A stretch of 64,000 nt of DNA. Source: Candidatus Heimdallarchaeum endolithica (lineage in GTDB: Archaea; Asgardarchaeota; Heimdallarchaeia; Heimdallarchaeales; Heimdallarchaeaceae). How positions within the stretch are numbered: position 1 is the stretch's first letter; every line of letters begins with the position of its first letter. A program made the translations under genes and the position numbers. Of the stretch, positions 25,444 to 26,181 are shown in pieces. The stretch covers positions 416,001 to 480,000 of the forward strand of contig CP084167.1 in NCBI GenBank assembly GCA_021513715.1. Direction: 5' to 3'. The notes under the pieces were generated by a model, which worked only from the letters and a program-made list of their open reading frames with translations, was not told where the DNA came from and did no database searches.

Positions 25444-26181
25444 TTAATCAAAGATTCTTATAAATGAGACCTTAGAACAATCAATCATATATTTAGGTCT
25501 TCTTGGACTACCATCTGCATTTCTCATTCCTTTTTGGAAATATCTTATCCAACCGTTTGACTGACCTTGAGACAATAGGTTTTCGTTTAACGCTAAAATA
25601 AAAAAGAACTTACGCATGGGTTGTAATCCTGTTTGACTGACCTTGAGACAATAGGTTTTCGTTTAACCAAAGAAAATTAAATTCTTTAATATAAAACTTT
25701 GTTTTTCTTCTTCTAGATGGAGCACCTCTTTTTTTTCTTTCAATTTCATATTTGCTTATTTTACCTTTTAGATTATCATGCCAAGCTTTAAACTCTCCAG
25801 TATTACCAAAAATAGCTTCTCCTTCAACAATAACATATCCAATTTCTCCGTAATCTCTGATACAATTATCAACAGCTTCACAATCATTAAGTATAAGTCA
25901 CGATTTGTTTCTTGAATTAGATATATGTGCCTTTATATCCCAAGAATGTTCATTTAAATAATCAAATTGTGTATTACTATACTAGGTCCATCACTTCCAC
26001 CTAAATATTCAAACAAAAGTTCTTTGATTTTATATTCTATAAACCATCCAATCCATTCCATTTGTCTCCATTGATAATTTGCTTTTTTTAATGTTTGAAT
26101 ACATTTCTTATCATCAAGTGTTTTTTCCATATGTTTGTCAAGAAACAAAAATATCTTTTTTGCCTCAATTTTGTAACTCAT
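25444..26181 (-). pseudogene. Inactivated putative Type II restriction endonuclease, convergent with the methyltransferase
   Basis: Reconstruction: ..WRQMEWIGWFIEY..GP/YSNTQFDYLNEHSWDIKAH..S*LILNDCEAV..FKAWHDNLKG..RRRKTKF..WLNENLLSQGQSNGWIRYFQKGMRNADGSPRRPKYMID..FD*. PD-(D/E)xK-like FD..DIK. Lesions: -1 at ~25982, TGA at 25898-25900, 76-bp insertion at 25592-25667. Confidence 0.75.
25555..25667. CRISPR. CRISPR-like single repeat-spacer-repeat unit (37-39-37 bp), probably an ectopic spacer integration rather than a functional array
   Basis: Exact repeat GTTTGACTGACCTTGAGACAATAGGTTTTCGTTTAAC at 25555-25591 and 25631-25667, unique 39-bp insert between. No leader or cas genes nearby. Confidence 0.55.

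Follow-up and report, generated by a model that had tools for sequence, protein, structure and literature searches.

A direct repeat and spacer-sized insert in a restriction-endonuclease-like pseudogene

The DNA analyzed here is a stretch of 64,000 nucleotides (the window) from Candidatus Heimdallarchaeum endolithica, whose genome is a single contig of 3,326,783 bp (C1) with a tRNA-Gly(CCC) at its end. Within the window, a broken gene resembling type II restriction endonucleases lies convergent to an intact DNA methyltransferase gene and is interrupted by an exact direct repeat that flanks a short insert. The features of the locus, in window positions, are as follows.

24466..25386, plus strand: intact N4/N6 DNA methyltransferase, convergent partner of the pseudogene (PF01555, E 7e-37)
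25444..26181, minus strand: type II restriction-endonuclease-like pseudogene; intact orthologs have 226–228 aa and a predicted PD-(D/E)xK-type fold
25555..25591, no strand assigned: target-site duplication copy 1, 37 bp, endonuclease coding sequence
25592..25630, no strand assigned: spacer-sized insert, 39 bp, without a full-length source; partial match to C1:1161970-1162000
25631..25667, no strand assigned: target-site duplication copy 2, 37 bp
25898..25900, minus strand: second lesion, a TGG>TGA stop, present in the SRR15988960 empty allele and not in more distant strains
25983..25984, minus strand: oldest lesion, a 1-bp deletion (frameshift) common to conspecific strains without the insert

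The two copies of the repeat are identical at 37 of 37 positions and, with the 39 bp between them, form a unit of 113 bp; mismatch begins immediately outside both ends of the duplication. The 37-bp sequence is unique to this site in the genome, and its nearest other match has 12 mismatches. When one copy and the insert (76 bp) are removed, the minus-strand frame is regained into GWIRYFQKGMRNADGSPRRPKY. The first-pass annotation had described this structure, the effect of the 76-bp deletion and two extra lesions in the gene, and each of these is real. The reading frame in the focal genome is broken in three ways, by the frameshift, the stop codon and the insertion.

In three related genomes, the same N4/N6 methyltransferase faces an intact ortholog of the endonuclease in convergent orientation. 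When these orthologs are aligned with the pseudogene, a check that the first-pass annotation had proposed, they run through the site with a single target copy, and the extra 76 bp appear as a clean gap. The predicted model of an ortholog (pLDDT 92) matched SwaI (Z 9.4, rmsd 3.6, 147 aligned), SfiI (8.7) and EcoRV (8.0), and its top 12 structural matches were all restriction-type nucleases. D74 and K84 are invariant. A Foldseek search with the same model returned nothing at E 0.001, the same class appearing only at E above 0.04. Judged by the predicted structure, "restriction-endonuclease-like pseudogene" seems a fair label. Like a type II restriction-modification pair that combines an EcoRV/SwaI/SfiI-like fold with an N4/N6 methyltransferase, the locus has a convergent methyltransferase and a fold match; unlike such a pair, its endonuclease belongs to a family (53 homologues) with no Pfam match and is broken in every conspecific strain examined.

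The methyltransferase remains intact though its partner is broken in all conspecific strains seen, leaving it orphaned, and in a sister species the endonuclease is missing beside the methyltransferase (L009). At C1:18984-20726 (L056:985-2727), the HeimV1 provirus carries an intact methyltransferase and endonuclease-like pair homologous to the window pair; its identity with the intact ortholog is 28% (E 1e-28). The window also has a (TTTTA)n microsatellite upstream of the pseudogene, at 26627-26710, and, at 33334-34026, an IS481-like transposase frame.

Filled and empty alleles and the order of the lesions

Logan short-read contigs of run SRR15988961 match the window exactly over 20466-25584 and 25638-26676, and they end exactly 30 nt inside the repeat from either side. 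These contigs come from a de Bruijn graph with k=31, and we read a break at k-1 as a two-copy repeat from the behavior of such graphs. Breaks of this kind are expected if the reads hold two copies, from which we infer that the focal duplication is genuine and no assembly artefact. The earlier concern that reads might not support the duplication is thus answered by breaks that fit two copies on both sides.

The neighbouring run SRR15988960 yielded a contig with one target copy and no insert that is otherwise identical to the window over 974 bp. This empty allele already has the frameshift at 25983/25984 and the TGA at 25898-25900. A filled allele below about one third of the reads could be pruned from contigs by the assembler; SRR15988960 shows a mainly empty population, which does not imply strict absence of the filled allele. 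More distant conspecific strains (~98.5% identical) are represented by four contigs, which likewise lack the insert and have the frameshift, with TGG at the stop position and additional 1-bp deletions in the pseudogene. Two environmental runs join 25554 directly to 25631, one of them with other deletions in the endonuclease gene, and a scan of JGI data, in which the strains differ by SNPs, found no empty allele. A single target copy before the event is therefore seen in orthologs from the three related genomes, in the four conspecific contigs and in the otherwise identical empty allele.

The order of the lesions is frameshift, then stop codon, then insertion. Because the frameshift is common to distant conspecific strains and the stop is common to the empty allele, the insertion came last, and the endonuclease gene was therefore dead beforehand. 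The insertion is very recent. This settles an order of events that the first-pass annotation had called unknown, and its picture of one defence system mutating another fails, since the spacer struck an existing pseudogene and disabled no working defence gene.

Resident CRISPR-Cas systems

Three cas1 loci, each adjoining cas2, are present in the genome, and one of them (C1:3197444-3198276) is broken, with stops inside the match and two overlapping pieces. The type III-A operon consists of cas10, csm2, RAMPs, cas6, cas1, cas2 and cas4. Its Cas1-Cas2-Cas4 set is intact, and this III-A-linked Cas1-Cas2(-Cas4) integrase locus lies at C1:1047351-1049390. The III-A arrays have a 37-bp repeat (117 and 77 repeats) and hold 192 spacers of 37-45 bp, with a length of 39 bp in 32 of them. 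In the remaining arrays the repeat measures 30 bp and the spacers 33-42 bp; native spacers in all arrays number 259. The expectation that Cas1 and Cas2 would be found in this genome, and that the native repeat would equal the 37-bp duplication with 39 bp falling within the native spacer range, was borne out. The proposed match of GTT..AAAC termini was not: the native repeat ends in GAAAT rather than AAAC, and its better fit is with the target's plus strand, not with the minus strand that had been proposed.

No native protospacers were recovered for the III-A array, matches in the sister species being spacer-to-spacer. Spacers of the sister species (L046:1501-1536, L052:1508-1539) overlap III-A spacers 17, 58 and 13, and two share one end exactly. 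This overlap suggests a common, unrecovered virus; no viral contig matched the shared spacer. Over 36 bp, one spacer from a 30-bp-repeat array is identical to a stretch of the resident HeimV1 provirus (C1:3794-3829 and C1:2106616).

Source of the focal insert

The focal insert is single-copy and without terminal inverted repeats. It had no exact match in IMG/VR (full 39-mer, 20-mer), JGI metagenomes (26-mer) or GTDB genomes (20-mer), no match with up to 3 mismatches in 82 genomes of the class, and no match among the 259 native spacers. A viral 18-mer match did not extend and was set aside as chance, as was a 14-mer match at C1:2243563, which is at chance level (~8% of shuffles). The search for its origin that the first-pass annotation had proposed thus gave no full-length source in viral, metagenome or genome collections, and it gave one partial match in the host: the first 21 nt and last 6 nt of the insert match a single locus (C1:1161970-1162000) in the intergenic region of two divergent genes, 12 nt of the insert standing where the locus has 4. 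A genome match of at least 21 nt occurs for 1 of 192 native spacers and for none of 2000 shuffles, though A-rich promoter-like DNA recurs. A strain variant of this locus as the donor gained no support, since five conspecific contigs and the sister species all have the short form. Either foreign DNA that resembles this locus by chance or a mosaic prespacer could account for the focal insert.

Four further scars of CRISPR shape

Following the earlier suggestion to look for further units, the genome was scanned for isolated exact direct repeats of at least 20 bp with a period of 30-500, arrays and protein repeats being left out. The scan returned six isolated repeats. One is a near-tandem 25/7 duplication, and the other five, the focal unit and four more, have CRISPR dimensions (repeat/insert, bp):

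window 25555-25667: 37/39, the focal scar
C1:948726: 36/41, insert an exact copy of C1:34632
C1:1260940: 38/39, readable as 37/40, insert an exact copy of C1:2916702
C1:312013: 37/43, in a dead transposase
C1:1839783: 31/33, readable as 30/34, in an amidohydrolase gene that also has an inversion

Four of the five scars fit the 37-bp system and one fits the 30-bp systems. All five are young, because every duplication is perfect. Empty alleles were found for four: the focal scar; C1:1260940, whose disrupted gene is an intact 178-aa frame in another strain of the species; C1:312013, of which a paralogous transposase has one copy; and C1:1839783, of which orthologs have one copy. For C1:948726 no empty allele was found. 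At C1:1260940 the duplication also shows a k-1 break in SRR15988961, checked on one side. Two other conspecific assemblies (L083, L085) end 21 and 26 nt inside the target at C1:1260940, possibly through variation at this site in those populations.

The inserts at C1:948726 and C1:1260940 are captured short fragments. By sequence resemblance, the donor at C1:34632 is a cysteine-desulfurase-like gene, situated a few kb past HeimV1, and that at C1:2916702 is a pyruvate-kinase-like gene. Host-derived inserts are thus found in two of the four 37-class scars, compared to 0 of 192 array spacers (hand calculation 6/19110, ~3e-4). This excess of host DNA is consistent with self spacers being selected against only where crRNA is produced.

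Perfect 8-bp hairpins are present in both inserts without a known source (C1:312050-312092 and C1:1839814-1839846), for which a viral match was sought and none was found. Hairpins of at least 8 bp occur in 2 of 192 native III-A spacers, and 8-bp hairpins in ~1.3% of random 40-mers. A 41-bp exact match between C1:22301 (HeimV1 intergenic) and C1:1132529 (intergenic) is without a flanking duplication and was left uncounted.

Target sites and the native repeat

The focal target starts with GTT on either strand, so that G is first on both strands. Its plus strand matches the native III-A repeat at 16/37 positions (43%), AATAG block included, which places it in the top 3.4% of genomic sites; the minus strand matches at 13/37. 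Taken together, the four 37-class targets match the first 10 nt of the native repeat at 24/40 positions (p ~0.001, in a window chosen post hoc) and are marginal over the whole repeat (p 0.05). G1, A6 and A10 are common to the native repeat and all four targets. No leader likeness was seen at the targets. A PAM was not demonstrable with two donors only and no native protospacers for comparison; III-A spacer uptake is reported to be PAM-independent, and a PAM is thus not expected (PMC8860593). In vitro, archaeal Cas1-Cas2 integrates at non-CRISPR sites that have G or C at both borders and G1/T3/A6 and share only 43% identity with the repeat (PMC6698737). The focal target has G...C borders with G1/T3/A6, and by this comparison its features appear to agree with those of Pyrococcus Cas1-Cas2 off-target sites in vitro.

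Probable off-target integration by the III-A-linked module

We believe that the focal unit is very probably a natural off-target spacer integration by the III-A-linked Cas1-Cas2 module. The geometry of the unit, the single-copy ancestral state, the order of the lesions, the presence of the enzymes, the four sister scars and the two exact donors were all observed directly; that Cas1-Cas2 was the catalyst, which module acted, in which orientation, and that no crRNA is made are what we infer from them. The first-pass annotation had proposed an ectopic Cas1-Cas2 acquisition, and cas1/cas2, the 37-bp native repeats, the single-copy orthologs and the sister units uphold it, with the source of the insert alone missing.

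In the proposed sequence of events, the III-A-linked Cas1-Cas2(-Cas4) integrase, loaded with a 39-bp prespacer, would have made paired attacks, one on each strand and 37 bp apart, on a stretch of chromosome with weakly repeat-like ends, having G1 on both strands, GTT starts and the AATAG block mid-site. Gap filling would then have produced the 37-bp duplication, completing a full-site integration. The event would have been neutral and persisted, the site being in an already broken endonuclease gene. Because the scar is without a leader and a proper Cas6 handle, it would probably give no crRNA and no growth, and self-derived inserts would therefore survive in the sister scars.

The scar's 3' octamer matches ATTGAAAT, the Cas6 handle, at 3/8 or 5/8 positions, and the flanks are gene sequence rather than leader. 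Of the nascent one-spacer array proposed in the first-pass annotation, only the shape stands: there is no leader, the handle reaches at most 5/8 of ATTGAAAT and no second spacer is present. A functional CRISPR array or mini-array was accordingly rejected. Several observations count against the Cas1-Cas2 reading. One sister duplication is 35-36 bp, not 37; the focal insert has a partial match to a host intergenic locus and no full-length source; the targets are only marginally like the native repeat over its whole length; and neither a PAM nor a leader-like flank was seen.

That a mobile element (IS, MITE, casposon or retroelement) left the scar as its footprint or remnant is largely refuted, and we consider it very unlikely. 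IS481-like copies are numerous in this genome, two of the sister scars are located within or beside them, and casposases are homologues of Cas1. Against these points, IS target duplications are only ~2-14 bp, the focal insert is neither repeated in the genome nor bounded by inverted repeats, two sister inserts are pieces of housekeeping genes, and searches of the genome found neither a stand-alone cas1 nor a reverse transcriptase. An assembly or library artefact of the Nanopore/Canu + Pilon genome is scarcely credible. Its Nanopore library was made with PCR barcoding, and SRR15988960 assembles straight through the site with one copy; native CRISPR dimensions, however, would not recur five times by this route, and the independent SRR15988961 contigs break k-1 into the repeat on both sides at the focal scar and on the one side checked at C1:1260940.

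An improbable explanation, though a less remote one than these, is a Cas-independent repair scar, in which fragment capture or template-switching mended a staggered break or stalled fork and duplicated the flank, the CRISPR-like size being coincidental or a product of general repair. The focal insert does look mosaic, with 21 nt and 6 nt of one locus around 12 other nt, and two other inserts contain perfect 8-bp hairpins; III-A systems, however, are reported to favor hairpin-prone DNA for their prespacers (PMC8860593). The sizes also cluster, five of the six isolated repeats falling on two native CRISPR geometries. The targets resemble the 5' end of the native repeat, and the inserts are not locally templated, their best local matches of 8-12 nt being like those of controls. 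In favor of the Cas1-Cas2 reading, a type III-A Cas1-Cas2 is reported to integrate extensively off target in vitro when no host factor is present (PMC13769266).

Relation to known systems and significance

Off-target Cas1-Cas2 integration and "neo-CRISPR" loci were described by Nivala, Shipman and Church (2018, Nat Microbiol 3:310). As described in 10.1101/148544 and PMC7054753, the system in that work is E. coli type I-E with over-expressed Cas1-Cas2, and the evidence from the wild is circumstantial and concerns two other species. As in that work, the present case has a repeat-length duplication of ordinary chromosomal DNA flanking a spacer-length insert outside arrays. It differs in that it concerns a wild-type Asgard archaeon and a III-A-linked module, with five events in two geometries, two exact donors and both alleles in public runs. 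With Pyrococcus furiosus Cas1-Cas2 (Grainy et al. 2019, PMC6698737) it shares repeat-length spacing, G/C borders, G1/T3/A6, ~43% identity and, on the proposed reading, full-site integration; that work was done in vitro on plasmids with a 30-bp ruler, whereas the focal case is in vivo and its ruler is 37 bp. For comparison, adaptation of type III-A is reported to show PAM- and orientation-independent uptake, a preference for structured DNA and promoter regions, and low intrinsic target fidelity (Zhang et al. 2021, PMC8860593; Seimel et al. 2026, PMC13769266). Those systems are bacterial; the focal module is archaeal and also has Cas4.

Events of this kind are therefore already on record, from over-expression in E. 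coli and from wild cases of a circumstantial nature, and what the focal genome adds is unusually full evidence from the wild. Evidence on the natural misfire rate, array seeding and gene breakage has so far come from the same two kinds of source. The scars described here have the dimensions of two resident systems, with two exact donors, before and after alleles and a resolved order of events, and, on the proposed reading, they mean that an Asgard archaeon has active adaptation at present. They also provide natural off-target sites for mapping the target motif of the integrase, and they suggest that self-derived spacers are common before selection purges them from real arrays.

A broader reading, which we offer tentatively and think rather unlikely to hold as a whole, is that off-target integration may be an ongoing, measurable mutagen in this organism, with five scars beside 259 array spacers, one gene broken and the focal scar still segregating among near-identical cultures. 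The scars might then constitute an unselected record of capture in which about half is host DNA, with hairpin-forming DNA and, in the focal scar, a mosaic prespacer of host intergenic and other DNA. In functional terms the focal scar is trivial, the gene that it struck being dead already.
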